A stretch of 64,000 bases of DNA from an uncultured Candidatus Saccharibacteria bacterium (GTDB lineage Bacteria; Patescibacteriota; Minisyncoccia; Phycocordibacterales; UBA6065). The position numbers and the translations under genes are program-made. A model generated the notes under the pieces. That model searched no databases. It was not told the origin of the DNA and saw nothing but the letters and a program-made list of their open reading frames with translations. The stretch spans positions 63,633 to 127,632 of the forward strand of contig CAZBVG010000004.1 in assembly GCA_964495425.1 (NCBI GenBank). The letters run 5' to 3'. Of this stretch, positions 2,824 through 22,599 are shown in pieces (the stretch's first letter is position 1; every line of letters begins with the position of its first letter).

Positions 2824-3924
2824 TTATCTGTTCATTGGCATCACGAGATAGGTGAAAGACTTGTCAGACACACCCTTGAGTACCAATGGCTTGTTGGCGC
2901 CGCTTATAGAGAGAACCAGACTATCAGCATCAATCGACTGGAAACAATCTGCAATGTACTTATGATTGAAGTTTATATCTACATCCTGGCCAGTAATACT
3001 TGAATCAAGTGAGTTGGTGTACTCCCCCACATCACTATTTTTTGTTGAAATCACAAAACTCTTCTTTGAAGGAAGTGCTTTTACGTTTACTTGATTAAAC
3101 TTATCTGAAAATACGTTTGAAGTTTTAAGTGAATCTACAAAATCCTGCTTCAAAATAACAACCTCGGTAACAAATGACTTTGGAATGATCTGTCGATAAT
3201 CCGGGAATGTCGCATCGATTACTCGAGACATCAAATAAATGTCTTTTGATTCAAAAGCAATCTGATTTTTATCAAAAAGCACTTTAATATCATCCGAAAG
3301 ACCATCGAGAGTGCGAATTATATCAGCAACATTCTTTGCTGGAACAATAACCGACGGAAAATCTATCGAATCCTTAACCTTCACCCTCTTTTCTGCGAGT
3401 CTAAACGAATCTGTCGACACAAATACCAAGTCAGAATCTTCCTTAAATACATAGACGCTTGAGAGTTCAGGCTTTACTGTAGACAAAGAAGCGCTATAAA
3501 CAACAGATTTGAAACCTTTTACGAGAAGTTTTGGGCTAATCTCGATTATCTTATTAGTTTCCAGCTTTGGAATTGAAGGGAAATCATCAGTTGGGAATGT
3601 TTTGATGAGAGTTGTGTTAGTTGAGGTTGAAATAACCACATTTCCATCCTTAGACTCAAGAGTAATATTCTTTTCCTTTGGAAGTCCGGCAAGAAGAGAG
3701 CTGATAACACCTCCCTGAAGGGCAATTTCACCCTCCTGTTCAACTTTAGCTGGAATCTTGATCTCTATACCACAATCAAGATTTGTCGCTCGTATAACGA
3801 GAGAATTTTTAGACGCGGATAAATTAATACATGAAAGAATTGGTAACGAAAGATTCTTACCTGTTAGACGATCAGCCTTTGAAATTCCTTCAATCAGTTT
3901 TTCTTTGATGCATTCGATTTTCAT
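2824..3924 (-). CDS. dnaN: DNA polymerase III beta sliding clamp
   Basis: 366 aa, typical three-domain clamp length, immediately downstream of dnaA. N-terminus MKIECIKEKLIEGI is typical. Confidence 0.9.
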   Translation of the reverse strand: MKIECIKEKLIEGISKADRLTGKNLSLPILSCINLSASKNSLVIRATNLDCGIEIKIPAKVEQEGEIALQGGVISSLLAGLPKEKNITLESKDGNVVISTSTNTTLIKTFPTDDFPSIPKLETNKIIEISPKLLVKGFKSVVYSASLSTVKPELSSVYVFKEDSDLVFVSTDSFRLAEKRVKVKDSIDFPSVIVPAKNVADIIRTLDGLSDDIKVLFDKNQIAFESKDIYLMSRVIDATFPDYRQIIPKSFVTEVVILKQDFVDSLKTSNVFSDKFNQVNVKALPSKKSFVISTKNSDVGEYTNSLDSSITGQDVDINFNHKYIADCFQSIDADSLVLSISGANKPLVLKGVSDKSFTYLVMPMNR

Positions 3925-4154: not shown

Positions 4155-5498
4155 TTATGAGATGAGAGATCGTATATGATTTACTTCCTGAAGAAGTACC
4201 TGGTTGGACTTTATCTCCTCTTTAACCTTTTCGCAAGAATGAATAACTGTCGTATGATCACGACCTCCAAGTTTCTCACCAATAGATGGGTAAGAAATAT
4301 TCATATCCTCTCGTAAAAGATACATGATTACCTGTCGTGGTTTCACCACTTCTTTCTTTCGTGTCTTCTCGTAAATGTTGTTTTCCTCAATATTATAGAA
4401 ATCTGAGACGATTTTAACGACATCTTTAATAGAAATAAGTTTCTTTGGCTTTGCACTATTCTTTATGAGGTTTTTTATCTCTAAAATGTTAAGTTCTCTT
4501 CCTCGAACTTGAGTTTGCATCACAATAGAGTTGATAATTCCCTCTAATTCTCGAATATTTCCATCAACTGAGCTTGCAAGAAAATCTAAAATGTCAGATG
4601 AAAGACCAACATTTTGCTTGGCAAGCTTATTTTTAAGGATAATTAAGCGTGATTCATAGTCTGGAGCTGCAACATCTACAATCATTCCTGATCCAAGACG
4701 AGATTTAATACGATCCTCGAGGTCAGGCATGTGGTTAGGATGCTGATCTGAAGAACAGATAAGCTGCTTATTATTTTCCTTGAGAGTATTGAAGAGGTGG
4801 AAGAACTCTTCTTGTGACTTTTCCTTGCTTGAGAAGAATTGTACGTCATCCATGATGAGTACATCATACTTTCGATATTTTTCTTTGAACTGATTCGCCT
4901 TACCAAGCTGAAGTGAATTCATAAAATCAACCGCAAAACGCTCAGAAGTCACATAATATACTTTCTTTGAAGGATCTTTTGCTTTAATATGATTCCCTAC
5001 CGCCTGCATAAGGTGAGTTTTACCTCGTCCTGTACCTCCGTAAATATAAAGAGGGTTATAAGCTATACCAGGATTTTTGATCACCGCCTGTGCAGCTGCG
5101 TGAGCAAGTTCATTAAATGGCCCAACCACAAAGGTATCAAAGGTATATTTAGGATTGAGGTTGTCATCCTTGCTTACATAGAACTCCTGAAGAGGTAATT
5201 CATATACGGGAGCAGCTTTCTGCTCAATTTCAAGAGGAGCTTTTCGTTCTTGATTTTTAGAAATAACATATTCAAGCGCGCGGACGTCGTTTCCAAAATC
5301 TCGAAGGTGCTTCAATATAGTTTTGTGAAATTTGCTCGAGAGCCACTCTTTTGCAAAGACACTTGGTACTGCCACATAGATAACACCATCATCCTGTTTG
5401 TGGATATATGTGTCTTTAAACCACATATTGAAGTTCGCCTTCGAGACCTGAAGCTCAACTGTCCCCAAAACGCTATCCCACAATTTTTTTGTATCCAT
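4155..5498 (-). CDS. dnaA: Chromosomal replication initiator DnaA
   Basis: AAA+ Walker A GGTGRGKTHL, Walker B-like DDVQF, and a C-terminal domain IV DNA-binding region (HTTVIHSCEKV). Confidence 0.95.
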   Translation of the reverse strand: MDTKKLWDSVLGTVELQVSKANFNMWFKDTYIHKQDDGVIYVAVPSVFAKEWLSSKFHKTILKHLRDFGNDVRALEYVISKNQERKAPLEIEQKAAPVYELPLQEFYVSKDDNLNPKYTFDTFVVGPFNELAHAAAQAVIKNPGIAYNPLYIYGGTGRGKTHLMQAVGNHIKAKDPSKKVYYVTSERFAVDFMNSLQLGKANQFKEKYRKYDVLIMDDVQFFSSKEKSQEEFFHLFNTLKENNKQLICSSDQHPNHMPDLEDRIKSRLGSGMIVDVAAPDYESRLIILKNKLAKQNVGLSSDILDFLASSVDGNIRELEGIINSIVMQTQVRGRELNILEIKNLIKNSAKPKKLISIKDVVKIVSDFYNIEENNIYEKTRKKEVVKPRQVIMYLLREDMNISYPSIGEKLGGRDHTTVIHSCEKVKEEIKSNQVLLQEVNHIRSLIS

Positions 5499-6977: not shown

Positions 6978-8219
6978 TTATTCTGTAAGTTCGTATCGCC
7001 ACACCGTCTGATCTTTTTTATTTTTAAATACGAGGACCGTTTCACTTTGATTGAGGTTGAGGTTGGTTATGTCCATGGAGCGACTGACTTCGAAAAGCGG
7101 GTTAAAGATCTCATTTGTTTCTCCTGTAGAAACATCAATTTTCCAAAGTGTATCACTAAATGAAACTTTACCTTTATACCAATCATCAGGAAAAGTACCG
7201 CTTGCAAGTGTTGTTGGACTTGCGCAATAAATAATATTTTTGTTTTTAACACTCCATACACATTTGTCAGCAAGAGCCACTATTCCAGTGTTTTCAGTGG
7301 TGAAAGTTTTAGTATTGTATATTGCTGATTTTATTGAGTTTCCGGAAGTGTATGAGAGAAACACGAAGGTTCCATCTATATTAGCAAGAGCAGATAGGCC
7401 ATTAAGGTCGTTACCTGCCTTTGTGTAAGTACCGTTTGTTGTGTTGAGAAGGTATGCTGCGCTCATTACCGAACCAGCCGGCCGAGGATAAATAGTGATA
7501 AGTGTCGGAGAAGACCATCGTGAAGTCCAGTCGCTAAACGAAGAAGAAAATACTGAAGTTTTTTCAGAGCCATCCATGTTTGCTGTTATACCACTAGAAC
7601 CAGCTGATGTTTTTAAGGTGTAGTAAATTTTTGTACCCAACGAAGTAATGTTTTGTATATTGTCCTGAAGAAAAGTTCCCTCAAGGGCTTCTTCGGGTGC
7701 ATTTAACGCTGAAATTGTTGCATAAAAGGTTTTTATAGTTTCTTCCTCCCCTTTTAGATATCGCAAGATAACTTTTGATCCATCATTTGACCACAGAGAT
7801 TCATATACTTTCGGTATAGTTACGCTGGAAATTTTTTTGATCTGAGCCGAGACATTGTTTGTTTCATAAATATGACCAGTTGCTCTTTCAATATAACGGA
7901 TCAGGGTACTACTGCCCATGTCGAAAACTATCGCTCCCGCCGCTGGAGTTTTTGATATTTGGCGAAGGCGTGGAAGACCTGTTGCACTATTGATTTCACC
8001 CACTTCTGCTGTAGATGATGATATGTCAACAAGTATACCTGTACCTGTTTGAGAATCAGAGCTTGAGTTTTGTCCAAAAGGAAAAAGATCAGTTGGTGAT
8101 GTAATTGGGGTCTCTGTTTGTGGGGTTATATCCCCTGTTCGTAAGAAGAAGTACCAACCAAAAAATCCAGAAACAATAAGTAGGAATGCTAGTACTAAGA
8201 AAAAAGTTTTTTTAGACAT
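6978..8219 (-). CDS. Membrane-anchored secreted protein, beta-rich; last gene of the T4SS-like operon
   Basis: The likely start is the internal Met (MSKKTFFLVLAFLLIV), 4 nt after the upstream stop. The listed ORF runs to 8300. It has an N-terminal TM and then a Ser/Thr/Gly-rich beta-type sequence, with no recognisable family. Confidence 0.5.
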   Translation of the reverse strand: MSKKTFFLVLAFLLIVSGFFGWYFFLRTGDITPQTETPITSPTDLFPFGQNSSSDSQTGTGILVDISSSTAEVGEINSATGLPRLRQISKTPAAGAIVFDMGSSTLIRYIERATGHIYETNNVSAQIKKISSVTIPKVYESLWSNDGSKVILRYLKGEEETIKTFYATISALNAPEEALEGTFLQDNIQNITSLGTKIYYTLKTSAGSSGITANMDGSEKTSVFSSSFSDWTSRWSSPTLITIYPRPAGSVMSAAYLLNTTNGTYTKAGNDLNGLSALANIDGTFVFLSYTSGNSIKSAIYNTKTFTTENTGIVALADKCVWSVKNKNIIYCASPTTLASGTFPDDWYKGKVSFSDTLWKIDVSTGETNEIFNPLFEVSRSMDITNLNLNQSETVLVFKNKKDQTVWRYELTE

Positions 8220-8223
8220 AGAT

Positions 8224-9333
8224 TTAATTTGATGGGAAGGTGAATACAGGTCGAACTGGTTTAGCCACAGTTTCAGTAGTAATTGGTGTATAGGTACCAC
8301 TCATGGTTGTTTTTGTCCCATTTCTCCAAGCCAGCATTTTCTCTAAATAAGTCATCTGTTGAGCAAGTTGATTTTCGATAGTTATGATTTCTTCATTAGA
8401 AAATACATTAGAACCAGAGTTGGTTTTTTGATCCCTCATACTTGATATAAGCTTTGCTGAGTCAACAGCAAGCTTATTTATATTTGCTCTGATTTGATCA
8501 GTACTGAATGTGTCGGCGTTTGTAGCATAAACGTTGGATAGTTCTGCTGCACTTGTGTACGAGTACAATTTTATTTGTGCATATTCAGCATTTGCTTTTG
8601 CCTGGATTGCAGCGTCTCTTTTATCTTGAAGCTCGTTAATTACGTCATCGGTTGCCCCTGCTGCGATTGCTGCATCAAGAGCCTTTTGTGCAGCTGTAGC
8701 AGTGTCGTTAAGTGAGTTCAATTCTCTATTTTTGACAGATATTTTATTACGGAGATCTTCTATTGCGACCTTAAGGGGATCAGATGAAAGGAGTTGGCAC
8801 GGCACCTTTTTTCCGTCTTTATCAAGAACACTGCATTCGACAGGTGTACCTAAACTCAAATCCACGTTAACAAGCTGAACGTTGATTGTTTGGAGAATAA
8901 GGAAAGCTGATAGAAGTAGAAGTAAACCCCAAAGAGCGCCATGCCAATGTTCTTTGGCAGCAGATTTGCCGGTTATGGCTTCGGTGGTCGCGTATTGAAT
9001 ACCTGCCCATATGATCATACCTATCGCAAGTATTGCAGCTATGCCGATCGCAACACCATAAACATTAGAGAGAACTTTTACAGGATTAGCTTTAACACAG
9101 CTGCTGGTATCACCATGGATATCTGGGACACAGCCGGTTGTTAAACCGGGTATTGTTGTAAGTGGGACATAGGTGCATCCAACAGGTACATAACCTCTTG
9201 CATCGGGCGCACAAGGGTCTACAGTAGCCGCCAAGGCGCTATTGGTACCAATGAAAAGAGAGGTGACTATGAATAGTATTGTGTAAATACTCAGTATTTG
9301 TTTAAGGATCGTTTTGTTGGATGATCTAATCAT
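8224..9333 (-). CDS. Putative T4SS pilin-like protein (TrbC/VirB2-like topology) with a long C-terminal coiled-coil extension
   Basis: Signal peptide, a Cys-containing segment, then two hydrophobic helices separated by a short loop (VAIGIAAILAIGMIIWAGIQY ... ALWGLLLLLSAFLIL), as in VirB2/TrbC pilins. Topology-based call only. Confidence 0.35.
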   Translation of the reverse strand: MIRSSNKTILKQILSIYTILFIVTSLFIGTNSALAATVDPCAPDARGYVPVGCTYVPLTTIPGLTTGCVPDIHGDTSSCVKANPVKVLSNVYGVAIGIAAILAIGMIIWAGIQYATTEAITGKSAAKEHWHGALWGLLLLLSAFLILQTINVQLVNVDLSLGTPVECSVLDKDGKKVPCQLLSSDPLKVAIEDLRNKISVKNRELNSLNDTATAAQKALDAAIAAGATDDVINELQDKRDAAIQAKANAEYAQIKLYSYTSAAELSNVYATNADTFSTDQIRANINKLAVDSAKLISSMRDQKTNSGSNVFSNEEIITIENQLAQQMTYLEKMLAWRNGTKTTMSGTYTPITTETVAKPVRPVFTFPSN

Positions 9334-10301
9334 TGAAATATTGTTACGCTCGCTTGCCCTCCTTGCAATATTCTTTCATTGTGCTGAACATTAAGCTCAA
9401 TCACTGCTTGACCCCCCTCTGCCCCACGTATCGTGATTTCGTTTTTATTTGAAAAGTTTGTATTCCTTACCCCATTTACGAGCCAGTCAAGCGAAATCGA
9501 CGGTGAATTTATCTTTGAAATTGAGAAATCAAAAGGCACTGCTCGAAGAGTGAGTTCCTCTTGGTTTAAATTGATATTATTTGGAATCACGTGCTCGTAA
9601 ATAACACCAATGAGAGGATTGTTTTCATAGAATAAAATTTCTGGTGTGCTGGGAGTTATAGTTATTGCTTTTGATCCGCTCATATCGTCATTTTGATTTG
9701 AAACCACAACAGAGATTTCATCTTCGCCGCGTACGTAGCTCTCTTGCATTCCAGAATAGGAATCTTTTCCGTAACCAGACTGATCTTGAACAGCGCTCCC
9801 GTTTTTCTTCCAAATATAAATTAGTGTTTTCGGGTCGAGTCTTTTCCCTGTTGAATTATAAAATTCAGGTATTGCAGTCACTTTAAATTTTGTACCGTAA
9901 GCTTCAAGAGCTCTTCCTTTATAAAAAGGTGGTGTATATCCGTCTGATTCCCAGAGTAAGGTTATGTCTACAGGGTTAAATGACGTTTGCCTTGTGATTG
10001 TTCCAAAGGAACCAGAAATAGTTGCTGAGACACGCGTAATCAAACCCGCTTTACCTGTAGGAACCTCAATTGAGGTTATGCCCTTCCCCTTTTTAAAAAC
10101 CTTACCATTGACGGTCCATGTTATGGTTGCAGAGTCAATATCGGTACCGATTGCAGAAATTTTAACAACGACAGTTGCATTGGGTCGTGGTGATTGCGGG
10201 TTAAGTTGCAAGACGACATCAGTATTCTGCGCATACGCGGTCAAAAAAACGAAACTCGATAGAAAGAGAACAAAAAAAGTACGTTGTAACAAGCGAAACA
10301 T
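9330..10301 (-). CDS. Secreted protein (signal peptide), operon member
   Basis: N-terminal signal peptide MFRLLQRTFFVLFLSSFVFLTAYAQ. A 4-nt ATGA overlap with the downstream gene indicates coupling. Confidence 0.5.
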   Translation of the reverse strand: MFRLLQRTFFVLFLSSFVFLTAYAQNTDVVLQLNPQSPRPNATVVVKISAIGTDIDSATITWTVNGKVFKKGKGITSIEVPTGKAGLITRVSATISGSFGTITRQTSFNPVDITLLWESDGYTPPFYKGRALEAYGTKFKVTAIPEFYNSTGKRLDPKTLIYIWKKNGSAVQDQSGYGKDSYSGMQESYVRGEDEISVVVSNQNDDMSGSKAITITPSTPEILFYENNPLIGVIYEHVIPNNINLNQEELTLRAVPFDFSISKINSPSISLDWLVNGVRNTNFSNKNEITIRGAEGGQAVIELNVQHNERILQGGQASVTIFQ

Positions 10302-10361
10302 ACGGTTATTCTAGCATAAAAAATGCCCTGAAATCGCAAAGCGCCTGTTAATAAACATCGT

Positions 10362-12167
10362 TTAGAGTTGTTGGTTCTTTTTTGCCTCTTTTATAGCCAA
10401 TATTTGCGATGGATCTGAGGTGATAATCTGGTCTTCAGTGTAGGAAGCGATGATTTTAATAGCCACATGCTTCAATCCTACGAAGAAGATACCCTCACCC
10501 ACGTCTGATTCCAACAAGAGATACTTTTCCTCATCGGTAAGGTTAAAGACTTGTTGTAGCCTATCGATCGATGATGGGGACTGTTTTAGAAGGATTTGTA
10601 TAGAAGAGTTGGTAATAATCGGTGTTCCATAAGGAGATTTGAGGAAGTCGTCCACGTCCTGGGTAATAGTTGCCACTCCAAGGAAGTATTTTCGGCCTCG
10701 TTTTGCCAAACCAAGAAGGAATGAGGCGGTATCCTCGGATTTCATCATCCACCATGCCTCGTCGATCACAAGGAGACGCTTTTTGAGGTTTTTACGGATA
10801 GCGTTCCAGATATAGTGGGTCACAATATACATTGCCACTGGTTTAAGCTCTTCTTCCATGTCTCGAAGAGAGAAGACGATGAATTTCGCGCCGATATCTA
10901 CGTTTGTTGGCTGATTTATGAAGCCAGACCAGGTTCCTTTGGTGTACTTGGTAAGTCTTTGAACAAGTGACTCCCCTCCTTCCATACCCGCAAGTACCAA
11001 TTCAAAGTCCGAAAGAAGTGGTGGTTGAATGTTTTTGAAGTCAGAATCAGGTGTGATGTCTTTGAGAGCGTAAGTTTCAGTAATTGCCTTGTCGATAAGC
11101 GCATCTTCTTCAGGTGTGAGACCCCCCATCATGATTCTAAAGAGACCTACAAGGTTAATGATGTTTGATCGAAGCACATCTGCGCCAGATTCGTCCTCGC
11201 GCGGTACCGGAAGATCAAATGGGTTGATGTGATGCTCAGAGTTAAGTGAGATATTGAAGTATTTTCCACCAGTTGCCTCTGCAAGGAACTCATATTCCCT
11301 CTCTGGGTCGATAACAATCACATCTGTATCGAACATGAGTGTTCGAAGGATTTCGAGTTTCGTTGTGTATGACTTACCAGCACCAGACTTTGCAAAGGTA
11401 ATTGAATTGTAGTTTTCAAGGGAGAATCGATCGAAAAGTACAAGAGATGAATTGTGTCGGTTAATACCGTACAAAATTCCCTTATCCGACGTGAGGTCGA
11501 ATGAAATAAATGGGAATAGTGAAGAAAGTGGTGATGAGTTGAGCTTTGAATGCACCAAAAGTTCATCGGTTGCAGTTGGTAAGTTTGATTTATAGCCTTG
11601 TTCCTGTTGGAAAAGTGCCGGTTTTACATATACGAGCTTTGATTCAAGGATTGATTTGATTTCAGACTCAGTTTTGTCGAGTTCTGCCTCTGAATCGCCA
11701 TAAATAGAGATATATACACCCACATCAAAGAGTTTTTCTTGCGCCTGCTGGAGCTGATCTCGGAGGTTTTCAAGGTCTTGATATGCCGTATCAAGCATTG
11801 GATCGCGTACAAGCCCCTTCTGTTCCCTGATGGCAATCTGGCTTTGCACCTCAGCAACCTTTTTCTGGAATTGGCGAAGCACTTTGGCGGTTTCAACAGG
11901 GTGAACAAAGATAGAAATATTGAAAACCTTGTCGAGGTTAATGATTGGGGCAAACCAGCTTTCACCAAGGAAGCGTGGATATGAAATAACAAAGAAGCTG
12001 CGAACGATTTTGTCACCAAGATTGAGTTCTCGAGGAGAAACCTTCAAGGCCGATGGCGCAATGACATCCTTCAATTCCAAAACTCCCGCTTCGTATATTT
12101 CCTGTGGAAGAATTGGGGCGATTCTTGTACTGTCGTCTTTCTTTTTAAGAAAATCAAAGATTCCCAT
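10362..12167 (-). CDS. VirB4/TrbE/CagE-family T4SS ATPase, C-terminal ATPase part
   Basis: Walker A AKSGAGKSYTTK, Walker B LLVIDEAWWMM (DEAW is typical of VirB4/TraC), and a downstream ITQDVDDF motif. Confidence 0.8.
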   Translation of the reverse strand: MGIFDFLKKKDDSTRIAPILPQEIYEAGVLELKDVIAPSALKVSPRELNLGDKIVRSFFVISYPRFLGESWFAPIINLDKVFNISIFVHPVETAKVLRQFQKKVAEVQSQIAIREQKGLVRDPMLDTAYQDLENLRDQLQQAQEKLFDVGVYISIYGDSEAELDKTESEIKSILESKLVYVKPALFQQEQGYKSNLPTATDELLVHSKLNSSPLSSLFPFISFDLTSDKGILYGINRHNSSLVLFDRFSLENYNSITFAKSGAGKSYTTKLEILRTLMFDTDVIVIDPEREYEFLAEATGGKYFNISLNSEHHINPFDLPVPREDESGADVLRSNIINLVGLFRIMMGGLTPEEDALIDKAITETYALKDITPDSDFKNIQPPLLSDFELVLAGMEGGESLVQRLTKYTKGTWSGFINQPTNVDIGAKFIVFSLRDMEEELKPVAMYIVTHYIWNAIRKNLKKRLLVIDEAWWMMKSEDTASFLLGLAKRGRKYFLGVATITQDVDDFLKSPYGTPIITNSSIQILLKQSPSSIDRLQQVFNLTDEEKYLLLESDVGEGIFFVGLKHVAIKIIASYTEDQIITSDPSQILAIKEAKKNQQL

Positions 12168-12171
12168 ATGA

Positions 12172-12807
12172 TTATTTTAGTGCAATCGGCTTTTCGGTGT
12201 CCCCAGGATTGAATATCTTATAAAAAAGTTCGACGATTTCCTCGGTCCCAAGCTCTACTGTTCGGATACCGCATCGCACCAAACCTTGCGTGACCACACT
12301 CATTCTTTGTTCCAATTGACTGCGACGCTCTTCAAAATCTGCGGCTTTTTTTTCAGCACTCTCAGCAGCGTCTTTTTTCTTTCCCAAAAGATCAGCCACT
12401 CCCCCTTTATTGAGAAGTGCTGGTGAATATGGCACCACAACGAAGAATGTTTTCGTCATGATGTTTGAATTTTCTGTGAAATTCTTGATGAATTGAATAT
12501 ATTCCCGTGTCTGAATTTTCAAAAGATCGCTCATTTGCTCTTTGAGTCGGTTTTCAAGCAAAGCGATATAGGGGCGGATATCAAGCCGACGTGACTGAAT
12601 AAAGATCTGTACTGAAAAGTCGAGTGAATTGAGAAAATTTTGGAACTGAAGAAGGATGGATTGCTGTTCGTCAGCTGATTTAAGAGCAAAGTTAAGAGAT
12701 GAGGCCATAATAATGCCACGTAGCGAATCATCCTTGAGGATTACGATCCCTTGCTTTATTTCCTTGATTGGAACGAACTCTTGAGTGGTTTTAGCGTTTA
12801 CTGCCAT
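12172..12807 (-). CDS. VirB4 N-terminal domain fragment (split gene or frameshift)
   Basis: The 211 aa ORF ends 4 nt before the ATPase ORF and lies in a different frame. Together the two ORFs total ~812 aa, a typical VirB4 length. The N-terminal pattern (..VPIKEIKQGIVILKDDSLRGIIMASSLNFAL.S..EQ) resembles the VirB4 N-domain. Confidence 0.5.
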   Translation of the reverse strand: MAVNAKTTQEFVPIKEIKQGIVILKDDSLRGIIMASSLNFALKSADEQQSILLQFQNFLNSLDFSVQIFIQSRRLDIRPYIALLENRLKEQMSDLLKIQTREYIQFIKNFTENSNIMTKTFFVVVPYSPALLNKGGVADLLGKKKDAAESAEKKAADFEERRSQLEQRMSVVTQGLVRCGIRTVELGTEEIVELFYKIFNPGDTEKPIALK

Positions 12808-12844
12808 GCAAATAAATTATGGGTACAGTATATCGTACTTTTTT

Positions 12845-13285
12845 CTAGAACGTTTTCTTCCCCTGCTCATTCTGTGCCGGGGTCTGGCTTTGTTTGATAT
12901 CAAGTGACCAGGTGAGATCTTTAAGCTTGCTGTCAGAGAGCTTTGGGACATAAAAGCTTGATGTTGGGTCATTTTCCTCACCCGGCTTTGGAGTTATTGG
13001 TTTTTCCACCTTCTTCCAAAGGTATAGTTTGCTCTTTGTATAGTAGTTAAATGCCGATTCTATGACATTTATGAAGGGCTTGTTGTTTACTTTGTAGAAT
13101 GAAAGGACAAAGGTGAAAGCAATTACTGGTAAGATAAAAATGAGGCTTATAAAGAGGTTTTTTATAATTGCGTAGAATATAAATGATATTCCCGCTCCAC
13201 TCAAAAGATAGATGAACTGCTTGATAGTAAGTGGTCCAAAAATTTTATCTTCTACTTCAATGAATTGAGGAACTTGAAATCTCAT
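12845..13285 (-). CDS. PrgI/VirB3-like small membrane protein
   Basis: 146 aa. The N-terminal motif FQVPQFIEVEDKIFGPLTIKQFIYL is followed by two TM helices, which is the architecture of PrgI-family (VirB3-like) proteins of Gram-positive-type T4SS. It sits adjacent to VirB4. Confidence 0.5.
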   Translation of the reverse strand: MRFQVPQFIEVEDKIFGPLTIKQFIYLLSGAGISFIFYAIIKNLFISLIFILPVIAFTFVLSFYKVNNKPFINVIESAFNYYTKSKLYLWKKVEKPITPKPGEENDPTSSFYVPKLSDSKLKDLTWSLDIKQSQTPAQNEQGKKTF

Positions 13286-13335
13286 AGGTTAAGTATAACT
13301 CAAAACAAAATCCACCTAAATAGGGTGGATTTTGT

Positions 13336-14052
13336 TTAGAGCGCGGGCTCTCGGTACGGGTCGCTTGAAGATTTTTGCGGAGGTTTTTGTTCCTGGGGAT
13401 TTTCTATCAAATTTGTTCTTTGCGCCGGAAGATTTGTGGGTTGAGCTAGTTTACTTGTAAGGAAATCCTGAGCAATTCGGTTCTTTGTGACTTCCCAAGG
13501 CTTATCTGGACCACGCTTCAACCTATCTAGATCGGGCTGTGGGACAGGCAGGATAGGTTTTACTGGTTCTGGATTTTCGATTTCAGTAAGAACTTTGCGT
13601 GGGGTCGGCATTATAACTGCTCTATTTTGTGTTGGGGTCGGTGTTGGTTGAGTTGCGGGCGTCGGTCGTGCGGGAATGTAGTTCGATGGGGGTTTAGGCG
13701 CAACAGGCACAGACTTTGGTGTTATTGGATTGCTTTCGGTATTACCTTTAATCACAAGAGCTCTATAAGCAACAAATATTTTTTCATTCACCTCTTTCAT
13801 AATAGATTCAAGGGTGTTTGGATCAAGCGAGAGTTCAACCGCAAGCGAGGATTTAACGTCAGAAGTTTTTATGAGGCCAATCAAAGTCGCAAACAGGATA
13901 TCTCCAAGCGCTCCGATTTTATCTATATGAAGATTATACTTCTTCCCTATTGTGTTATAGCTATCAGTAAAGGTATCAGAAGCAAGATAATCCTTCTGTT
14001 CATCTGATAATCGTTTATATGCCTCAAGTTTTTGTTCTTTTGGGATGTTCAT
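13336..14052 (-). CDS. Pro-rich hypothetical protein (operon member)
   Basis: 238 aa with a PT-rich linker (PTPATQPTPTPTQ) and no known domain. Confidence 0.45.
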   Translation of the reverse strand: MNIPKEQKLEAYKRLSDEQKDYLASDTFTDSYNTIGKKYNLHIDKIGALGDILFATLIGLIKTSDVKSSLAVELSLDPNTLESIMKEVNEKIFVAYRALVIKGNTESNPITPKSVPVAPKPPSNYIPARPTPATQPTPTPTQNRAVIMPTPRKVLTEIENPEPVKPILPVPQPDLDRLKRGPDKPWEVTKNRIAQDFLTSKLAQPTNLPAQRTNLIENPQEQKPPQKSSSDPYREPAL

Positions 14053-14054
14053 AT

Positions 14055-16475
14055 TTAGAAGCTCTCACCTACTGGATTATCGGTGAACCATTTATTAACC
14101 TTTTTCACGTTAGCGTCAGCATTAGGTGTAAGTGCACCATAAACTCCCCTGGCCGCATCGGCAAAACGCTTTTTAATTGCTGCTCGTTGGGTGCTATCTA
14201 ACTCGTCTATTGCCTTAGAGAGAGTCTTAGGTGTCATACGAATCGAAACTTCAAAATTGTCTAACCTGTCTTTCCACCCCAATTTCGCAATTTCATTTTC
14301 TTCTAACTTATCAAGTTCCATTTCAATGGTTGGTCCGTTAGTGCGTAGTATTGCAGCATCAAGATCCTGGTATCGAGTCTTCTTCATATCTGCCTTTATG
14401 ACGCCAGGAAGCTTCTTATTCTTCATGAGCTTATCGAACTTGTCATAATCCATGATCTTAGGATTGATGAAGTCATATGATCGAAGGTCGCCTGGAGAAA
14501 GATTCTGAAGTTCCTCGTCAGAGTGATTCCTAATAGCCTTTTTGATCTCATCAGTATTCTTGCTTTTGAGCGCAAGATTAACATCAGAGAGACGTGTTGC
14601 CCAGATTTTTTGTTTACCCGCATCGCTTTCCTGCTTATCAGCAAGATGGTCGACCTGACTCTGAGAGATGGTCTGAAGAAAGACTTCGTTCCCCAGGATT
14701 TTTTTATCAAGTTTCTCAAGTTCTTTGTTACCGAGTTTCTGAGCTTGGTCTGCAATTCTAAGCTTTGCCGCCTGAACTTTAGCATCACCATTAAAGCTTT
14801 GAAGTGCTGATGAATAATCTGCTTGTGCAGAAGCCAGCGCTGCAGCTGTTCCTGTTCCGTTTTTAAGTGCTGTAGATGCATTGTCCATAGCAAGCTTTTT
14901 CGTAATAAGATCTAAATCCTCAGCAGCTTTTTTGAGGTCGCCTTCGATGTCCTTAAGAATATTTTCATCTGCTTCGGCAATTTTGCGTTCTTCCGCCCAC
15001 GCCGCAGTCTGTGCCCCAAGCTCCTTTTTATCCCAGGCTTTTGCATCAATCTTAGCGTCGGTTGTGCTACTAAGTGAACCGCTTAAGAGTGAGCCAACAT
15101 TGGTCTTGTCGGTACCAATATTTCGTATATCAAGAGTACCCGATTTAAGTGTTTTTTGTGCGGCATCCATTGCTTTGCGTGGATCCTTTATGTATTTACC
15201 AATTTTTGATGTGGTTAGAATTGGAGGTAGGTTCTCGATAGCCGCCTTTTTAAATGCTGCACCCTTCGCCCCATTCTGCGCAGCTGCGGCCGCAAGACCT
15301 CCTCGCGCTAGAACTCGAGTTCCCATTGCAACACCACCTATTCCAAGCGTCGTTACTGCTGTTACAGCGAGTTTGCCTAAGCTGTCTGCAATTCCGCCAA
15401 GAGTCTTACCCATTTCCCCGCTATTTTCTTTTGCAATTTTAAGTACAGTACGAAGGAGGAAGATGACTAAGAAATATTGGAAAAATTGAGCTACTGTGAA
15501 ATTACTGATAAGTGCAATAGAGTTGGTCTTTGCATCAAAAAGTTTTCCACCCAAGTTTCCTAGGCTATTTATAAATTGAAGTGCTATGTAAAGCATCAAG
15601 AGAGTCGCAAGAGGAAAAACCGCTGCTGATAACAGCTCCTCTTTCCAATCTCCAGCATGCTTTTTTAACTGAGGCAATACGCCACCCATAAATCCCAGGG
15701 GCGAAAATACCAATAGAAAAAGTATCGTTATGCTTCTCGAAATAAAAAGAATCGCACAATATAAGAAGATGTAGGATGTCGTGCATACAATTATGAGTCG
15801 CAACATGACACCAATGAAACCCTTTGTGCCATCAGTTACCTGTTCCACATAATCTTGTGCATTAGCTGCGTTAGCATTCGTGGTTGCAGACCAAAATCCT
15901 ATAATACCGAGTCGTGTTGCAATGAGTCCGCTAAGACTTACAGGGCTTGATCGGTCGCTACTGTTGCTTACAAGGGTGTTTTGAACACCTTGATAGAGCC
16001 AGTTACCAAAAATGTTACTTACATCAACAACAGCTTTTGTGATGAAGAGGCTGAAGTTAATAAGAATTGCGGCAATGATCACGTTCTTAAGCATGTTCAT
16101 TGTGCCAAAACGCGTGCCATTAATGATTGTTCCTAGGCTAATCCATATGAGGATAAATATAAAGAATATATTTGCTATGTCGCGAATAATCACCCACCCA
16201 AGATTAATTGCCGGTGAAAGGCTAAATATATATGCGGTATTGATACTGAACTGGATCGCAATATCCATTATCAATCCACATAAATACATTATGCCCGCCG
16301 CAAGGGGGAGTATATAAAGCTCAAAAGGGAGCATGATGAGCCTTTGTATGGTGCCAAGGGCAATACCATCAAGGCTAAACCATCCAGCGTGGGCATGGTG
16401 AGGGATTATAAAAAGCGCAACAACAAGACTGAGGATAGAAGTGATTGCGGCAGGTTTTGTAAAGAAACGCTTCAT
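14055..16475 (-). CDS. Large polytopic membrane protein, VirB6/TrbL-like candidate with a C-terminal coiled-coil domain
   Basis: 806 aa. The N-terminal ~430 aa carry a signal peptide and many TM helices. The C-terminal ~370 aa are Ala/Lys/Asp-rich predicted coiled coil. Size and position match the VirB6-like proteins of minimal T4SS. Inference. Confidence 0.45.
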   Translation of the reverse strand: MKRFFTKPAAITSILSLVVALFIIPHHAHAGWFSLDGIALGTIQRLIMLPFELYILPLAAGIMYLCGLIMDIAIQFSINTAYIFSLSPAINLGWVIIRDIANIFFIFILIWISLGTIINGTRFGTMNMLKNVIIAAILINFSLFITKAVVDVSNIFGNWLYQGVQNTLVSNSSDRSSPVSLSGLIATRLGIIGFWSATTNANAANAQDYVEQVTDGTKGFIGVMLRLIIVCTTSYIFLYCAILFISRSITILFLLVFSPLGFMGGVLPQLKKHAGDWKEELLSAAVFPLATLLMLYIALQFINSLGNLGGKLFDAKTNSIALISNFTVAQFFQYFLVIFLLRTVLKIAKENSGEMGKTLGGIADSLGKLAVTAVTTLGIGGVAMGTRVLARGGLAAAAAQNGAKGAAFKKAAIENLPPILTTSKIGKYIKDPRKAMDAAQKTLKSGTLDIRNIGTDKTNVGSLLSGSLSSTTDAKIDAKAWDKKELGAQTAAWAEERKIAEADENILKDIEGDLKKAAEDLDLITKKLAMDNASTALKNGTGTAAALASAQADYSSALQSFNGDAKVQAAKLRIADQAQKLGNKELEKLDKKILGNEVFLQTISQSQVDHLADKQESDAGKQKIWATRLSDVNLALKSKNTDEIKKAIRNHSDEELQNLSPGDLRSYDFINPKIMDYDKFDKLMKNKKLPGVIKADMKKTRYQDLDAAILRTNGPTIEMELDKLEENEIAKLGWKDRLDNFEVSIRMTPKTLSKAIDELDSTQRAAIKKRFADAARGVYGALTPNADANVKKVNKWFTDNPVGESF

Positions 16476-16479
16476 ATAT

Positions 16480-18054
16480 TTATTGGACGGTTATGTAGTG
16501 ATCTTTAAGTCCAAGCGTGTTTCCTTGAACGTCATACACAACAGTTTGGAATGCGTAATTTCCAGGAACCCCTCCAGGCTTCTTGGTCGCGGTAATTCTC
16601 ACGGTAAAAGGTTTACCACTGTCCGTCCAAATATCACTCCACCCTACTGTCGCTTGTGGGTTTGAGGTAATCGGGAATGTGCTCGAGGTTCCATCGGCTC
16701 GGACGAATTCAATATTTATATTAGAAAATGCTACAGAGAATGGAACATCTGCCATAGTACTTGCATTCTTGAATGCTGTTCGCATGAGAAGGCCATCGGT
16801 TCGATAATTAGTTGCCAATTCCGCTTCGTAGAAAAGGGTGCTTGCAGCACTAACAAATGTTGAGTTGCCTGGATTAAGTGTTAGATCGAGCGTCTGTGTC
16901 CCGGTAGGCCCACCTACTGTTGGTGAATTACCCGACGGTCCGCCAGCGCCACCAGCCTCTACAGGAGGTGGGTTACTGAGGGCTGAATTAAAGTCGCTAG
17001 CACCAGTAGCAAGACCGGTTTTCAAGGCGCCACCAAGTGTTCCCTCGTCTCCTGTTATTACGGTAGGCTGGGCCGAGGCGTTGTAATCAGATGGTTGAAC
17101 GACAGTTTTTCGTTTTCCTCGGTTACCACCAAGAAGTCCAAATGAATTGTTCATGATTTGCTTTACAAGTTGATTTGTCAGCGCATCGTAAACAGCATTG
17201 ATGTCATTTGCGAGACCTATCTGTTGAAGATCAACATTTAGAGTTGCACTTAAACGATCTTGAATAATAATTCCTGGAGTTTCGATAGTACATGTTTCTT
17301 TTCCGGTAGCATCTTTTTCACAGAATTTCCAATTTTTGAAACCGTTACCCCAATCAAGATACTTTTCCTCTATAGCCTGGGCATCAATGATTCTTCGTGA
17401 TAACTCATCCTGCGCAATCATATATGCGCCGTAGGCATTATTTTTTGGGACGGTTGTGACTTGTAACCAGTTGTCCCATCCCCCACTATTATCTCCAGCA
17501 ACAAATCCTGTCACATTATCTATAACCTTGGTTAGCGTACACGAGGCCCGTTTGTTGTAGGGTAATCGGCTTTGTGCCAAAGCTATTCTGAGTTTGAAAG
17601 AAAATTGTGAGCACAAAAAGGGCGCTTCTTTTGCTATGAAGTCACCTATAACCTGATCCGCGGTGTCTTTGAGTAGCCCTTCAAAATTCACCTCAAATCC
17701 TGGATTTCCTTGGAAACCGTTGTTTATCCAGGCAACCGTATCCATTGTCATTTTATTAAGAAGAGCCTTTGCCATTTTTACGACAAGAGGTTTGAAAATA
17801 CAGTCAGAAACAAAGCTTCCGGCAGAGCTTAATTTTGTGGTCGAGTCGTTTGAGGTAGCGACGCGAGTCATTTCATCGGTTGCAGCGCTAAAACCAAGCG
17901 CGGCAGCAACTTGTGAAAGACATGACGCCTGCGCTGCAGACTTTTTAGGGTATAAAAAGAAACCGCTCGGTATTAGAAGAGTGAGGATGAGGACAGAAAG
18001 GACTGTTTTTTTGCAAAAACGAGAAATCATGTATCTCGAAAAGATAGAGGTCAA
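16480..18054 (-). CDS. Secreted protein with a Gly/Pro-rich region (operon member)
   Basis: 524 aa with an N-terminal TM/signal and a PPVEAGGAGGPSGNSPTVGGPTGT segment. No family recognised. Confidence 0.5.
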   Translation of the reverse strand: MTSIFSRYMISRFCKKTVLSVLILTLLIPSGFFLYPKKSAAQASCLSQVAAALGFSAATDEMTRVATSNDSTTKLSSAGSFVSDCIFKPLVVKMAKALLNKMTMDTVAWINNGFQGNPGFEVNFEGLLKDTADQVIGDFIAKEAPFLCSQFSFKLRIALAQSRLPYNKRASCTLTKVIDNVTGFVAGDNSGGWDNWLQVTTVPKNNAYGAYMIAQDELSRRIIDAQAIEEKYLDWGNGFKNWKFCEKDATGKETCTIETPGIIIQDRLSATLNVDLQQIGLANDINAVYDALTNQLVKQIMNNSFGLLGGNRGKRKTVVQPSDYNASAQPTVITGDEGTLGGALKTGLATGASDFNSALSNPPPVEAGGAGGPSGNSPTVGGPTGTQTLDLTLNPGNSTFVSAASTLFYEAELATNYRTDGLLMRTAFKNASTMADVPFSVAFSNINIEFVRADGTSSTFPITSNPQATVGWSDIWTDSGKPFTVRITATKKPGGVPGNYAFQTVVYDVQGNTLGLKDHYITVQ

Positions 18055-18066
18055 GATAATTATACA

Positions 18067-18975
18067 CTACTTTAGAAAGAGGTATCCACTTTCAAATGAG
18101 GAAAACTCCACGTTTCTATTTTTAAGGTGGCTTGATATCACTCGGAGCGCTGGATCTATAGATTTTATACCGTCTTCATAACTTAACATGAGTCGAGCTG
18201 CTCCGATTGGGTCTGAGTCTATGTATGTCATGCCCTTAATGCCCTCAATTATCGCAGAAAGTGAGTTGAGAAATGCGAGGTGGGCATCGACAAGGTTCTT
18301 TGGGACAGCTATTTGAGACGCGATTTTACGTGCCTCGGTATAGCGAGCGATATTTTGAGGTAATTTTTCGAGATATGAAGCATCGTCTGTCTCATACACA
18401 TGATTTACAATAGCGATTTCACTTTCGTATCCAACTGGGGCAGGTCTACTTATTGCTGAGGCCATCTCATTGGCATATTTTTTCAATTCTGACGGTAAAT
18501 CAGTATCTAAGACAATAATATCTGTAATTGTATAGATTTTTTCTCCCTCAGGGCCACCATAATCCTTAGTTAGAAGCTCGTTCACGAAGCGAATGGTGGT
18601 GTTTTCGTCTATTACCCCACCCTTATTCTTGAAATCTACATATTTTTCAAGAAGTTCTCTTGAAAAGCGGTCTGTTGCAGTAATCGGGGCCGTTTCAGCA
18701 TCACTTTTTTCATAAGCATCCTTTAATTCTGCGATTTTGTCGTCAGTGGTAGATGTACTACTCACAGCTAAAAGGGCCTCTTCCCAACCAGACGTGTCAA
18801 TTTGGCCATTTTGCAAGGCCTTTTTAATGCTTTCTTGTGCGATAAGGTCGATTTTCGCTCTAACTGAATTACTAGACTTCTCGGTTGCCTTTTTGAGATA
18901 AATTCCTCCCCCAATAATTACAACAGCTGCTATAAGTGAAAGGCCGATACTTGAAAAGAGAAATTTTCGAATCAT
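18067..18975 (-). CDS. Membrane-anchored protein, first gene of the T4SS-like operon
   Basis: 302 aa with an N-terminal TM (IGLSLIAAVVIIGGGIYL). Confidence 0.5.
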   Translation of the reverse strand: MIRKFLFSSIGLSLIAAVVIIGGGIYLKKATEKSSNSVRAKIDLIAQESIKKALQNGQIDTSGWEEALLAVSSTSTTDDKIAELKDAYEKSDAETAPITATDRFSRELLEKYVDFKNKGGVIDENTTIRFVNELLTKDYGGPEGEKIYTITDIIVLDTDLPSELKKYANEMASAISRPAPVGYESEIAIVNHVYETDDASYLEKLPQNIARYTEARKIASQIAVPKNLVDAHLAFLNSLSAIIEGIKGMTYIDSDPIGAARLMLSYEDGIKSIDPALRVISSHLKNRNVEFSSFESGYLFLK

Positions 18976-19035
18976 ATGAAAAGTATATCAGGCTCTTACT
19001 ACGCTTCATAGAGAGAATGGTGCTATAATTTACAG

Positions 19036-19828: not shown

Positions 19829-20647
19829 TTATTCGCTGTTGCGTACGAGTTCCATCCAAAGTGGAAGTGGAATTTCTTCTGCGCGAGCGTTTGTATTTAG
19901 GTTAAGGCGTTTGAACTTCGCCTCGAGAACCTCTTTAGTTTCAACCGCTTCGAGATTTGAAATAAGTTTTTTGCGCTTTTGGGCAAAACCAGCTTTTACG
20001 AACTCAAAAAATCGGGCTTCTTCCTCTTTGTTTTTAAAGGGATTGTGAATGTTGCTGAGTTTTAGTACTGCTGAATCAACGTTAGGAATCGGAAAGAAAT
20101 TTCCCCGAGATACGTTCATAACAAGTTCGGGCGTAGCAAACACCTTTACTGAGATTGAAAGAATGCTTTCTTTAGTATCTTTTGCCAAGATTCTGCGGGC
20201 AACTTCCTTTTGCACCATAATAACCATCATTGAAGGCCGACAGGTGCTCGAGAGAAGGTTTCGAATGAGTGCCCCGGTGATGTAATACGGAATGTTAGCA
20301 ATTACTTTGTAGTTTTTTCCAACAATCGTCTCGATTTCTTCATCTTTAATATCGAGAACGTCCCGGTGAAATATCTCAAGTTTACCTTCTGAGATTTCTT
20401 TTTTAAATTCTTGAGTTAAATACGGTACGAGACGATTGTCCTTTTCAACCGCTTTCACGATGCCACCCATATACATCAACGCCCGAGTTAAAACTCCTTT
20501 TCCTGGTCCAACTTCAAGCACCACATCTTTTTCTTTAAGGTCACCAGCTTTAATGATTGCTTCAATAATGCGAGGAGAGATAAGAAAATTTTGGCCAAGA
20601 GATCTTTTTGCTGGTAAACCATCCGATTCATGCTGCTTGTGTTCCAT
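19829..20647 (-). CDS. rsmA: 16S rRNA (adenine1518/1519-N6)-dimethyltransferase
   Basis: GQNFL motif and the SAM-binding VLEVGPGKGVLT. Confidence 0.9.
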   Translation of the reverse strand: MEHKQHESDGLPAKRSLGQNFLISPRIIEAIIKAGDLKEKDVVLEVGPGKGVLTRALMYMGGIVKAVEKDNRLVPYLTQEFKKEISEGKLEIFHRDVLDIKDEEIETIVGKNYKVIANIPYYITGALIRNLLSSTCRPSMMVIMVQKEVARRILAKDTKESILSISVKVFATPELVMNVSRGNFFPIPNVDSAVLKLSNIHNPFKNKEEEARFFEFVKAGFAQKRKKLISNLEAVETKEVLEAKFKRLNLNTNARAEEIPLPLWMELVRNSE

Positions 20648-20655
20648 GGTGAAAA

Positions 20656-22599
20656 CTATATATCAAAATAGATAACTTTGCCTCCTGCTCGTGTGCGCAT
20701 TTCTTCCTCTATATAGTGCTCTGGAATGTCGAATATGAACTCCGATGGCACGGTTACCTGTCGTGAACCAAAGATGGTACGAATGGAAGCGTGAGAGAGG
20801 AATAATTTTTTCTTTGCACGGGTGATAGCGACATAGAAAAGACGTCGTTCCTCTTCGTCATCTCGCTTACTGCTTTTGGTTTCCATTGCCTTGTGTGGGA
20901 ACAGATCTTGTTCGAGGCCTGTGATAAATACATACTCGAATTCAAGGCCTTTTGAGGCGTGAATAGTCATTAAGCGTACCGCGGGCGCATCTTCTTCCAT
21001 TTCATCTTGATCGGTGGCCAAAGAAGCATCCTCGAGAAGTTTGGTCACACCTTCTCCGGGAATCATGAAATCATACTTTGTTGCTAGAGTTGCAAGCTCC
21101 TTTACGTTTTCAAGTCGCTCAAGATCTTCTTCTGTTCCCTGCTGGAACATTTCTTCGAGCCCGGTGCGCTTGATAACAAAACGAACGAGATCAGAAGCCT
21201 TCTCGCTTTGTGTTTTTTGTGCGATTTCATCAAGCATCATATTGAAATCACTCCATTTTTTAGAATGGGTTGAAGAAAGTTGGTCGAGCATGCCTGAAAA
21301 AATTTTGGCAATAGTAACTTTTCCAATTCCTCGTGCTGGAACATTGATCACCCGCTCTATATCAGAGAGAGAGTCACGATTAAGTGCGGCACGAATGAAC
21401 GACAAGACATCCTTGATCTCTTTTCGTTCAAAGAACTTAACGCCGAGCACCTGATACTGCACATCGCGAGCAAGCATCGCTTCTTCAAGTGCTCGAGATT
21501 GGAAGTTTGCTCGATAAAGAACGGCAATGTTGCTTGGATCCGTGCCTTTTTCAATGAGATCTGCGGATTTTTCTGCGATAAATCGAGCTTCATCGTTTTC
21601 ATCAAAGGCTGGATAGACAGTAATTTTCTCCCCTGCCCCTTGTTTGGTGAAAAGATTTTTTTCAAAGCGATTCTTGTTCTTTTTTATGATATGGTTTGCG
21701 ACTTCAAGGATTGTTTGTGTTGAACGGTAGTTTTCCTCGAGCGTGACCATTTTTGCACCCGGGTAGTCTTTTTCAAACGAGAGTATGTTTTTAATATCTG
21801 CTCCACGCCAGCTGTAAATATTTTGATCGACATCACCTACCACGCATATGTTTTTTCGCTCTCCTGCAATGAGTTTGGCGATTTTATACTGCACTTTATT
21901 CGTATCCTGATACTCATCAATATGTACGTATGTCCACGCTTTTTGATATTTTGCTCGCACCTCAGCATCTTTTTCGAGAAGCTCTGCGGTTTTAAGAAGA
22001 AGATCATCAAAATCCAACGCCTTTTCCTTTCTCAGTGCTGCTTCATATTTCTGCCATACCTTATACACGATATCTCGCATGTAATCGTTGCCCACTGATT
22101 CAAAAAATTGGGATAGATTTACCCCGTTACCCTTTTCTTTTGAAATTATTGAGAGGAGTACATTCGGCTCATATTGTTTTGGATCGAGCCCGGTATCCGT
22201 GATGGCATTTTTTACCGCGCGCCGTGAGTCTGATCGATCGAAAATGGTGAAATGCTTGGTCAAGCCAAATCTTTGAGCATTTTCACGAATAATGTGTACT
22301 CCGAGTGAATGAAAGGTACTTACGAATGGTCGCTCGGTAAAGCTTATGGGCACATTCAAGTCCTTGTCTTCCTTTAAAAGTTTTAGGACACGCTCTCGCA
22401 TTTCCTTCGCCGCCTTGTTGGTGAAAGTAATTGCAAGGATGTTTGCCGGTGTAATTCCGTTTTTTATGAGATGGAGTATGCGATACGTGATGGTTTTTGT
22501 CTTTCCGGCACCCGCTCCAGCCAAAATGAGCACCGGACCCTCAGTCAAAAGCACCGCTTCCTTCTGTCGATCGTTTAAAGTGGCGAGATGATTCACCAA
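20656..22599 (-). CDS. pcrA: UvrD/PcrA-family ATP-dependent DNA helicase
   Basis: LNDRQKEAV, Walker A AGAGAGKT, and the helicase motifs of SF1A. Confidence 0.9.
   Translation of the reverse strand: MVNHLATLNDRQKEAVLLTEGPVLILAGAGAGKTKTITYRILHLIKNGITPANILAITFTNKAAKEMRERVLKLLKEDKDLNVPISFTERPFVSTFHSLGVHIIRENAQRFGLTKHFTIFDRSDSRRAVKNAITDTGLDPKQYEPNVLLSIISKEKGNGVNLSQFFESVGNDYMRDIVYKVWQKYEAALRKEKALDFDDLLLKTAELLEKDAEVRAKYQKAWTYVHIDEYQDTNKVQYKIAKLIAGERKNICVVGDVDQNIYSWRGADIKNILSFEKDYPGAKMVTLEENYRSTQTILEVANHIIKKNKNRFEKNLFTKQGAGEKITVYPAFDENDEARFIAEKSADLIEKGTDPSNIAVLYRANFQSRALEEAMLARDVQYQVLGVKFFERKEIKDVLSFIRAALNRDSLSDIERVINVPARGIGKVTIAKIFSGMLDQLSSTHSKKWSDFNMMLDEIAQKTQSEKASDLVRFVIKRTGLEEMFQQGTEEDLERLENVKELATLATKYDFMIPGEGVTKLLEDASLATDQDEMEEDAPAVRLMTIHASKGLEFEYVFITGLEQDLFPHKAMETKSSKRDDEEERRLFYVAITRAKKKLFLSHASIRTIFGSRQVTVPSEFIFDIPEHYIEEEMRTRAGGKVIYFDI

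Follow-up and report, generated by a model that had tools for sequence, protein, structure and literature searches.

A trsD-like gene beside a short virB4 in a chromosomal type IV secretion system of a patescibacterium: a VirB4 ATPase probably made as two polypeptides

According to Quiñonero-Coronel et al. (2025, PMC12102498), no component of the type IV secretion system (T4SS) is more abundant in Patescibacteria than TrsD; 2,272 homologues were counted in 2,221 assemblies, and 1,664 of these homologues are associated with VirB4. The same paper describes TrsD as a remote homologue of the VirB4 N-terminus that mostly sits beside virB4, finds the TrsD homologue of Candidatus S. epibionticum ML1 to be essential, and reports that dnaA, dnaN and KsgA are often close to the T4SS, that a relaxase is mostly missing from the T4SS clusters, and that TrsD does not adjoin VirB4 in Gracilibacteria. 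Here, we analysed one such gene pair, a small open reading frame (ORF1) followed by an ORF for a VirB4 ATPase (ORF2). It is located in a stretch of 64,000 nucleotides, called the window below, from an assembly deposited as an uncultured Candidatus Saccharibacteria bacterium (GCA_964495425.1, contig CAZBVG010000004.1, positions 63,633 to 127,632).

The locus is the chromosomal T4SS of a Paceibacteria-type patescibacterium belonging to the candidate phyla radiation (CPR), near dnaA and dnaN. It shares with the patescibacterial TrsD and VirB4 systems the gene pair itself, the PrgI/VirB3, VirB6-like and VirB2-like pilin neighbours, and the dnaA/dnaN/ksgA position. The arrangement is already described in the literature (PMC12102498), and the window differs in no kind from it but adds one more member. 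The exact break point between the two genes, its match with the plasmid pSK41, and the spacer and frame statistics given below were not found in the part of that paper considered here.

Identity of the two genes and position of the break

Very probably, VirB4 is naturally made as two polypeptides in this system, a TrsD-like protein of ~210 aa and a short VirB4 of 601 aa, which would re-associate non-covalently and be encoded in a co-transcribed operon. The junction consists of the following elements:

12172..12807, minus strand: trsD-like gene (ORF1), 211 aa, encoding the first half of the VirB4 N-terminal domain as a protein of its own (PF26593 TraC-like); from the ORF call, NCBIfam, the AlphaFold2 (AF2) fold and hhalign.
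12168..12171, minus strand: spacer 'tcat' of 4 nt, from the TAA of trsD to the ATG of virB4; from the sequence.
10362..12167, minus strand: gene of the short VirB4 ATPase (ORF2), 601 aa, comprising the remaining N-terminal domain and the P-loop ATPase domain; from NCBIfam, Pfam and PDB 4AG5.

Re-reading of the sequence confirmed the coordinates, the lengths of 211 and 601 aa, the 4-nt gap and the differing frames given in the initial annotation. The 3' end of ORF1 reads '...CTA AAA TAA', and the 5' end of ORF2 reads 'ATG GGA ATC' in frame +1 relative to ORF1. ORF2 cannot be extended upstream, because its own frame contains a TAA four codons before the ATG. Two public assemblies contain the identical protein (P0001) together with the junction TAAtcatATG, namely a 180-kb contig of ENA ERZ27309394 and Logan SRR6747782.

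ORF2 matched the NCBIfam model NF045971 (conju_CD1110) with 372 bits, above the cut-off of 325, over positions 185-733 of 752. Its Pfam domains are P-loop_TraG, AAA_10 and DUF87, with a further match to positions 295-374 of the TraC_F_IV profile. Residues 228-584 match PDB 4AG5, the C-terminal domain of the VirB4 of T. pseudethanolicus (E 5.6e-42), and a Walker A motif 'GAGKS' is visible. By these sequence matches ORF2 is assigned to the VirB4-family ATPases, above a curated VirB4 equivalog cut-off.

The short VirB4 begins with M-G/S-x-F-x-x-L-x-K-K-K, a motif conserved across the 78 related species and similar to the first residues of the pSK41 VirB4 (L083:26584-26620). This conserved head could be a docking or membrane-binding peptide.

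ORF1 matched the N-termini of four VirB4 models, namely CD1110 (positions 2-118 of 752), VirB4_plasma (101-233 of 894), TIGR00929 (4-177 of 792) and, weakly, the TraC_F_IV profile (133-175). The two ORFs therefore cover collinear, non-overlapping stretches of CD1110 (2-118 vs 185-733). Against the TrsD/TraD model NF041427, ORF1 scored 29.5 bits (E 6e-7, positions 12-174 of 201). Precomputed annotations assign PF26593 (TraC-like) to the identical protein P0001 and to each of the 120 homologues listed. In a Foldseek search of the PDB with the AF2 model of ORF1 (pLDDT 72), the top 14 hits were all TrwK/VirB4 of plasmid R388 (E 1.4e-4 to 3.5e-3), and the next hit had an E of 0.08. The alignments to TrwK/VirB4 span 183-222 columns with a TMq of 0.37-0.51, in an output that prints no target residue ranges.

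It could be argued that the small ORF has nothing to do with VirB4 and just happens to lie in front of a short virB4 gene. A local Pfam-A scan of ORF1 gave no match above threshold and did not return PF26593, a phmmer search against the PDB sequences found nothing, and a profile of 86 diverse ORF1 homologues gave only a chance match there. The homology of ORF1 to solved VirB4 structures is apparent at the level of fold only. In contrast to what an unrelated gene would show, the NCBIfam matches are to VirB4 N-termini, the significant fold matches are exclusively to TrwK/VirB4, and an equivalent of ORF1 forms the N-terminal part of the fused proteins described below. We give the unrelated gene almost no probability. 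The sequence and fold matches agree with the view of the initial annotation that the small ORF is akin to the VirB4 N-terminal domain, and ORF1 most likely represents the first half of that domain.

A lineage annotated mostly as Candidatus Colwellbacteria carries both parts in one ORF of ~790 aa (e.g. P0184 and P0332, 'conjugal transfer protein TraC'). The fused proteins (P0184 and P0271-P0389, from Ca. Colwellbacteria metagenome-assembled genomes) form more than 100 clusters at 90% identity, are 59-100% identical to each other, and all have a length of 775-807 aa. Over their first ~205 residues, they are 41-47% identical to ORF1. They differ from the window in being a single ORF, in which a short linker takes the place of the MGIFDFLKKK...ILPQEIY head that the short VirB4 carries. 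The considered part of PMC12102498 makes no mention of this fused form.

ORF1 and ORF2 were aligned with seven of the fused proteins. The alignment is collinear, with '...ELFYKIFNPGDTEK' of ORF1 opposite '...ELYFNYYNPATIEK' of the fused proteins and '...LELKDVIAPSALKV' of ORF2 opposite '...ASIEDVVAPASVET'. In the fused proteins these two blocks are joined by a variable linker of 10-25 residues, to which, in the split form, a few residues at the end of ORF1 and the N-terminal ~30 residues of ORF2 correspond. All conserved blocks of ORF1 and ORF2 are present in the fused proteins and none is lost at the split, which answers the question raised in the initial annotation whether the junction removes residues. 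A single Pfam TraC_F_IV match in the fused protein P0184 (profile positions 133-371) crosses the junction, and full-length TrwK/VirB4 can be superposed over 800-875 columns on an AF2 model of the fused protein (pLDDT 73), at a TM of about 0.6. The alignment places the break in a variable linker inside the VirB4 N-terminal domain, roughly mid-domain. The assumption that the break separates the N-terminal domain from the ATPase was therefore incorrect, since ORF2 retains about 250 residues of the N-terminal domain.

Two proteins of 600 aa were considered as recent splits within the fused clade. P0289 is an artefact, because a scaffold gap of 100 N (L084:1546-1646) lies inside the fused gene and the protein starts mid-helix. 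P0385 likewise starts mid-helix and was not counted. P0289 illustrates how a false split can enter public data when gene callers are misled by a run of 100 N.

The two-gene state in related species

We scanned one genome per GTDB species, which yielded 418 stretches with a relative of ORF1, and kept the best 80 loci. The counts below refer to 80 junctions, comprising 78 other species and two copies of the window's own locus (L001, L002). The junction was not scorable in L040, which reaches a contig end, and in L062, where no ORF2 start was found.

The two genes are separate in all 78 other species with a readable junction, and in each of them the stop of ORF1 and the ATG of ORF2 occupy homologous places. 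Amino acid identity to the window ranges from 61 to 88% for ORF1 and from 78 to 95% for ORF2, and the junction sequences differ among the relatives. Spacers of -4 nt (an ATGA overlap) occur at 6 of the 80 junctions, spacers of 0, 1, 2 and 3 nt at 1, 10, 2 and 2 junctions, spacers of 4 and 5 nt at 16 and 9 junctions, spacers of 6 to 19 nt at 18 junctions, and spacers of 45 to 565 nt at the remaining 16 (20%). All three relative frames are found (39, 26 and 15 junctions).

In L062 (L062:3658-4480), the virB4 match begins only at residue 66, ~800 nt past the trsD stop, and without an in-frame start codon. Inserted DNA, a rearrangement or a faulty assembly may account for this.

A word-indexed search returned at least 8000 homologues of ORF1, and the best 120 of these all measured 206-222 aa. 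In a library with one representative per 50%-identity cluster, 2413 sequences matched ORF1, and the top 150 comprised 149 stand-alone proteins (121-443 aa) and one fused protein. Three more distant stand-alone TrsD homologues (P0165, P0177 and P0205; 37-47% identity) end in disordered C-terminal tails, 130-230 aa long and enriched in P, A, Q and T; the TrsD-like protein of the window has no such tail.

Nonsynonymous divergence (dN) from the closest species was 0.10-0.17 for ORF1 and 0.03-0.08 for ORF2. ORF1 evolves at about twice the rate of ORF2. Synonymous sites were saturated even for the closest species, so that dN/dS was not computable and selection was read from dN and from the conservation of length. 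On this reading, both genes are under strong purifying selection, and the gene split is ancient and selected rather than damage.

These comparisons bear on the second reading offered in the initial annotation, namely a frameshift in a normally single virB4, caused by a recent inactivating mutation or by a sequencing or assembly indel, for instance in the A4 run of CTAAAATAA. From the window alone this hypothesis was fair, because the loss of one A from the run would join the frames of ORF1 and ORF2; fused versions of ~790 aa are, moreover, real in another lineage. The comparative data refute it. The split is shared by 78 of 78 other species, with unrelated junction sequences, three frames, ATGA overlaps and long spacers; the length of ORF1 is steady at ~211 aa among its at least 8000 homologues; both genes show the signature of purifying selection; ORF2 has its own N-terminal motif M-G/S-x-F-x-x-L-x-K-K, which is lacking in the fused proteins; the junction is identical in two assemblies; and the genuine artefact P0289, with its mid-helix start and scaffold gap, looks different. 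A pseudogene is recognized by a break missing in the orthologues and by relaxed constraint, whereas here every one of the 78 species shares the break and the dN of ORF1 is 0.10-0.17. A frameshift is thus extremely unlikely. The comparison of orthologous loci favours the alternative of a genuine split, as do the VirB4-like nature of ORF1 and its collinearity, together with ORF2, with the fused relatives.

Programmed recoding, by a +1 frameshift or a stop bypass at AAA-TAA, might instead give a full-length fused VirB4. It would fit the short gap of 4 nt and the +1 frame relation in the window. Yet no slippery or stimulatory sequence is conserved, the relatives have offsets of 0, 1 and 2, spacers of up to 565 nt and even inserted genes, and the TAA in the ORF2 frame four codons before the ATG leaves only a few bases for a fusing shift. 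We consider recoding very unlikely, and translation of the two genes as separate polypeptides remains the preferred reading.

Spacers, insertions and expression at the junction

Adjacent gene pairs of the same operon are separated by a 4-nt gap or a 2-nt gap, or share a 4-nt overlap. The 4-nt spacing between trsD and virB4 is ordinary within this operon. A promoter scan returned one weak site directly before virB4:

12174..12203, minus strand: promoter-like site, GGGACA, 18 nt and TAAAAT, ending 6 nt before the virB4 ATG.

The 30 nt 5' of 24 gene starts in the window contain almost no Shine-Dalgarno sequences, and many have a box resembling TATAAT or TATACT 6-12 nt before the start. Examples of the upstream regions, all on the minus strand, are 12808-12837, 13286-13315, 18055-18084, 18976-19005 and 20648-20677. 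This pattern suggests that leaderless mRNAs, or mRNAs with very short leaders, are the usual mode in the genome of the window. A 4-nt spacing without a Shine-Dalgarno sequence plausibly fits either translational coupling by termination-reinitiation or initiation that is leaderless or independent of Shine-Dalgarno sequences. Coupling is not obligatory, however, because the spacer measures 45-565 nt at 16 of the 80 junctions, some with a whole inserted gene or with a clean TATAAT (L018, L031 and L045). The termination-reinitiation coupling proposed in the initial annotation therefore stands as an option but not as a requirement.

In five loci, an intact gene of ~115-135 aa is inserted in the spacer between trsD and virB4 (L012:3637-4047, L015:3640-4060, L048:1498-1978, L051:3649-4090 and L064:3637-4100), and in two further loci the insertion is apparently disrupted (L017:3625-4120 and L066:1628-2192). 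The products of three of the five intact insertions (those in L012, L015 and L064) were scanned and matched Pfam PF05635, a four-helix-bundle protein of the 23S rRNA intervening sequence, with E values of 1e-33 to 1e-43. This short PF05635 gene is apparently mobile and seems to have landed repeatedly at the trsD/virB4 junction.

Other spacers of 97-122 nt contain no ORF (L070:3634-3738, L027:3640-3761, L021:1614-1728, L071:3628-3729 and L013:2508-2604). They bear AT-rich sequence resembling inverted repeats, such as 'agtacgaattacgaag...cgttattcgttattcgtact' in L070, and the spacer of L013 is 84% identical over 61 nt to the 3' end of the insertion in L012. These spacers may be scars of excised or decayed insertions.

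The long spacers also bear on the possibility that TrsD is a homologue of the VirB4 N-terminus that acts independently, as an adaptor, a regulator or an assembly chaperone of the T4SS, rather than as a stoichiometric piece of VirB4. Together with possible promoters of their own, such spacers would permit unequal dosage of the two proteins. The roughly twofold faster evolution of ORF1, the long disordered tails rich in P, A and Q on TrsD homologues of other CPR lineages (P0165, P0177 and P0205), and the separation of TrsD from VirB4 in Gracilibacteria, given in PMC12102498, point in the same direction. In contrast, a whole lineage works with both parts covalently fused 1:1, the model of the fused protein is collinear with TrwK/VirB4, and the two genes are tightly adjacent in 80% of the species. 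An independent role of TrsD is, in our view, unlikely, and we prefer to see the TrsD-like protein as one of the two pieces of VirB4.

Several results weigh against a TrsD-like first half of VirB4 made as a separate polypeptide, or against parts of this reading. The link to the staphylococcal TrsD is remote. The score of ORF1 against NF041427 is far under the curated cut-off of 200 bits; because of this score, we call ORF1 TrsD-like and place it outside the narrow staphylococcal family. A BLASTP comparison of ORF1 with the TrsD of the staphylococcal plasmid pSK41 was not significant, nor was an hhalign comparison with the same protein based on a shallow profile of ORF1 sequences that were 75-93% identical. 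The AF2 models of ORF1 and of the fused protein are only moderate (pLDDT 72-73). Finally, promoter-like sites in the region were no more frequent than in shuffled controls (6 vs 7.9), and these sites were not used as evidence.

Genomic setting and comparison with known systems

The gene pair is part of a larger T4SS cluster, with the following features:

12845..13285, minus strand: PrgI/VirB3-like membrane protein gene, directly upstream of trsD (Pfam PF12666 PrgI, 43.5 bits, cut-off 27).
14055..16475, minus strand: VirB6/TrbL-like polytopic membrane protein gene (weak Pfam TrbL match of 21.1 bits, below the cut-off of 25.9; same order in L001).
8224..9333, minus strand: T4SS pilin-like (VirB2-like) gene, downstream in the cluster (weak Pfam T4SS_pilin match of 21.7 bits, below the cut-off of 26.6).
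2824-3924: dnaN.
4155-5498: dnaA.
About 6978-18975: T4SS gene cluster.
19829-20647: ksgA.

The genes dnaN and dnaA lie ~1.5 kb from one end of the cluster, and ksgA and uvrD (19829-22599) lie on the other side. The cluster is thus located at the presumed replication origin, as published for Paceibacteria.

In this setting, trsD and virB4 would be co-transcribed as cistrons of a tightly packed operon, and the TrsD-like protein and the short VirB4 may associate non-covalently and rebuild a VirB4-like N-terminal domain. Through the rebuilt domain, the ATPase would be connected to the PrgI/VirB3 protein, whose gene lies just upstream, and TrsD, encoded right after PrgI/VirB3, probably supplies the half that is proximal to the membrane and to VirB3. 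In plasmid R388, the two protomers of a VirB4 dimer are held together by the N-terminal domain, which is also embedded in the membrane and contacts VirB3 and VirB8 (PMC12857230). By analogy, if TrsD is the first half of this domain, a concrete functional hypothesis is that it takes the role of the R388 part that contacts VirB3 and VirB8 and pairs the protomers. The natural fused version could be used for structural work.

For annotation, our results imply that the junction is not to be marked as a frameshift in virB4 or 'repaired', as it consists of two real genes in Paceibacteria. In the one system tested, epibiotic growth depends on the patescibacterial T4SS, whose most widespread component is TrsD. 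Work by Wang et al. in 2023 reportedly dealt with the T4SS of Ca. Southlakia epibionticum ML1, a system of the same class.

Beyond Patescibacteria, the span covered by TrsD and the short VirB4 corresponds to that of full-length VirB4, as in TrwK of R388 (PDB 7O41/8RTD) and the CD1110 family of Gram-positive integrative and conjugative elements. These differ in being one polypeptide instead of two, and their sequence identity to the window is 13-17%.

The staphylococcal conjugative plasmids pGO1 and pSK41, with TrsD/TraD and TrsE/TraE of the Gram-positive MPF-FATA class (pGO1 subclass), share with the window the order of a VirB3-like gene, trsD and a short virB4. In pSK41, a CagC-like pilin gene and a small hypothetical (VirB3-like) gene are followed by trsD (227 aa), a 14-nt spacer and a DUF87/VirB4 gene (672 aa), and the trsD-like gene of the window likewise sits between the VirB3-like gene and the short virB4. 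The VirB4 of pSK41 can be aligned with ORF2 from its second residue onward (E 4e-30), with MIMAFLKKKK opposite MGIFDFLKKK. A diverse ORF1 profile of 86 homologues matched the pSK41 TrsD (WP_000979860) in hhalign with a probability of 78% and an E of 1.8e-5 over 173 columns, end to end (residues 7-200 vs 33-216). The pGO1/pSK41 system differs in its very remote sequence, with 18% identity to the TrsD-like protein of the window; furthermore, the pSK41 system serves plasmid conjugation and includes a relaxase and a coupling protein, whereas the system in the window is chromosomal.

From these alignments, the trsD/virB4 break apparently falls at the same place as the break in the staphylococcal pGO1/pSK41 systems. 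Because the break position and the M-x-x-F-x-F-L-K-K-K head are the same in both, a single ancient fission common to the Patescibacteria T4SS and pGO1/pSK41 can be envisaged, in which the conserved head of the short VirB4 and the conserved tail of TrsD (ELFYKIFNPGDTEKPI) would be docking elements and Colwellbacteria would have re-fused the genes secondarily and lost the head. We put this forward tentatively, as a possible but rather doubtful scenario. If it were true, an N-terminal domain of two chains could permit an adjustable TrsD:VirB4 dosage. Compared with the arrangement already known, the additions made here are modest: a break point at a mid-domain linker, the apparent identity of this break with that of pSK41, and the fused form of Colwellbacteria.

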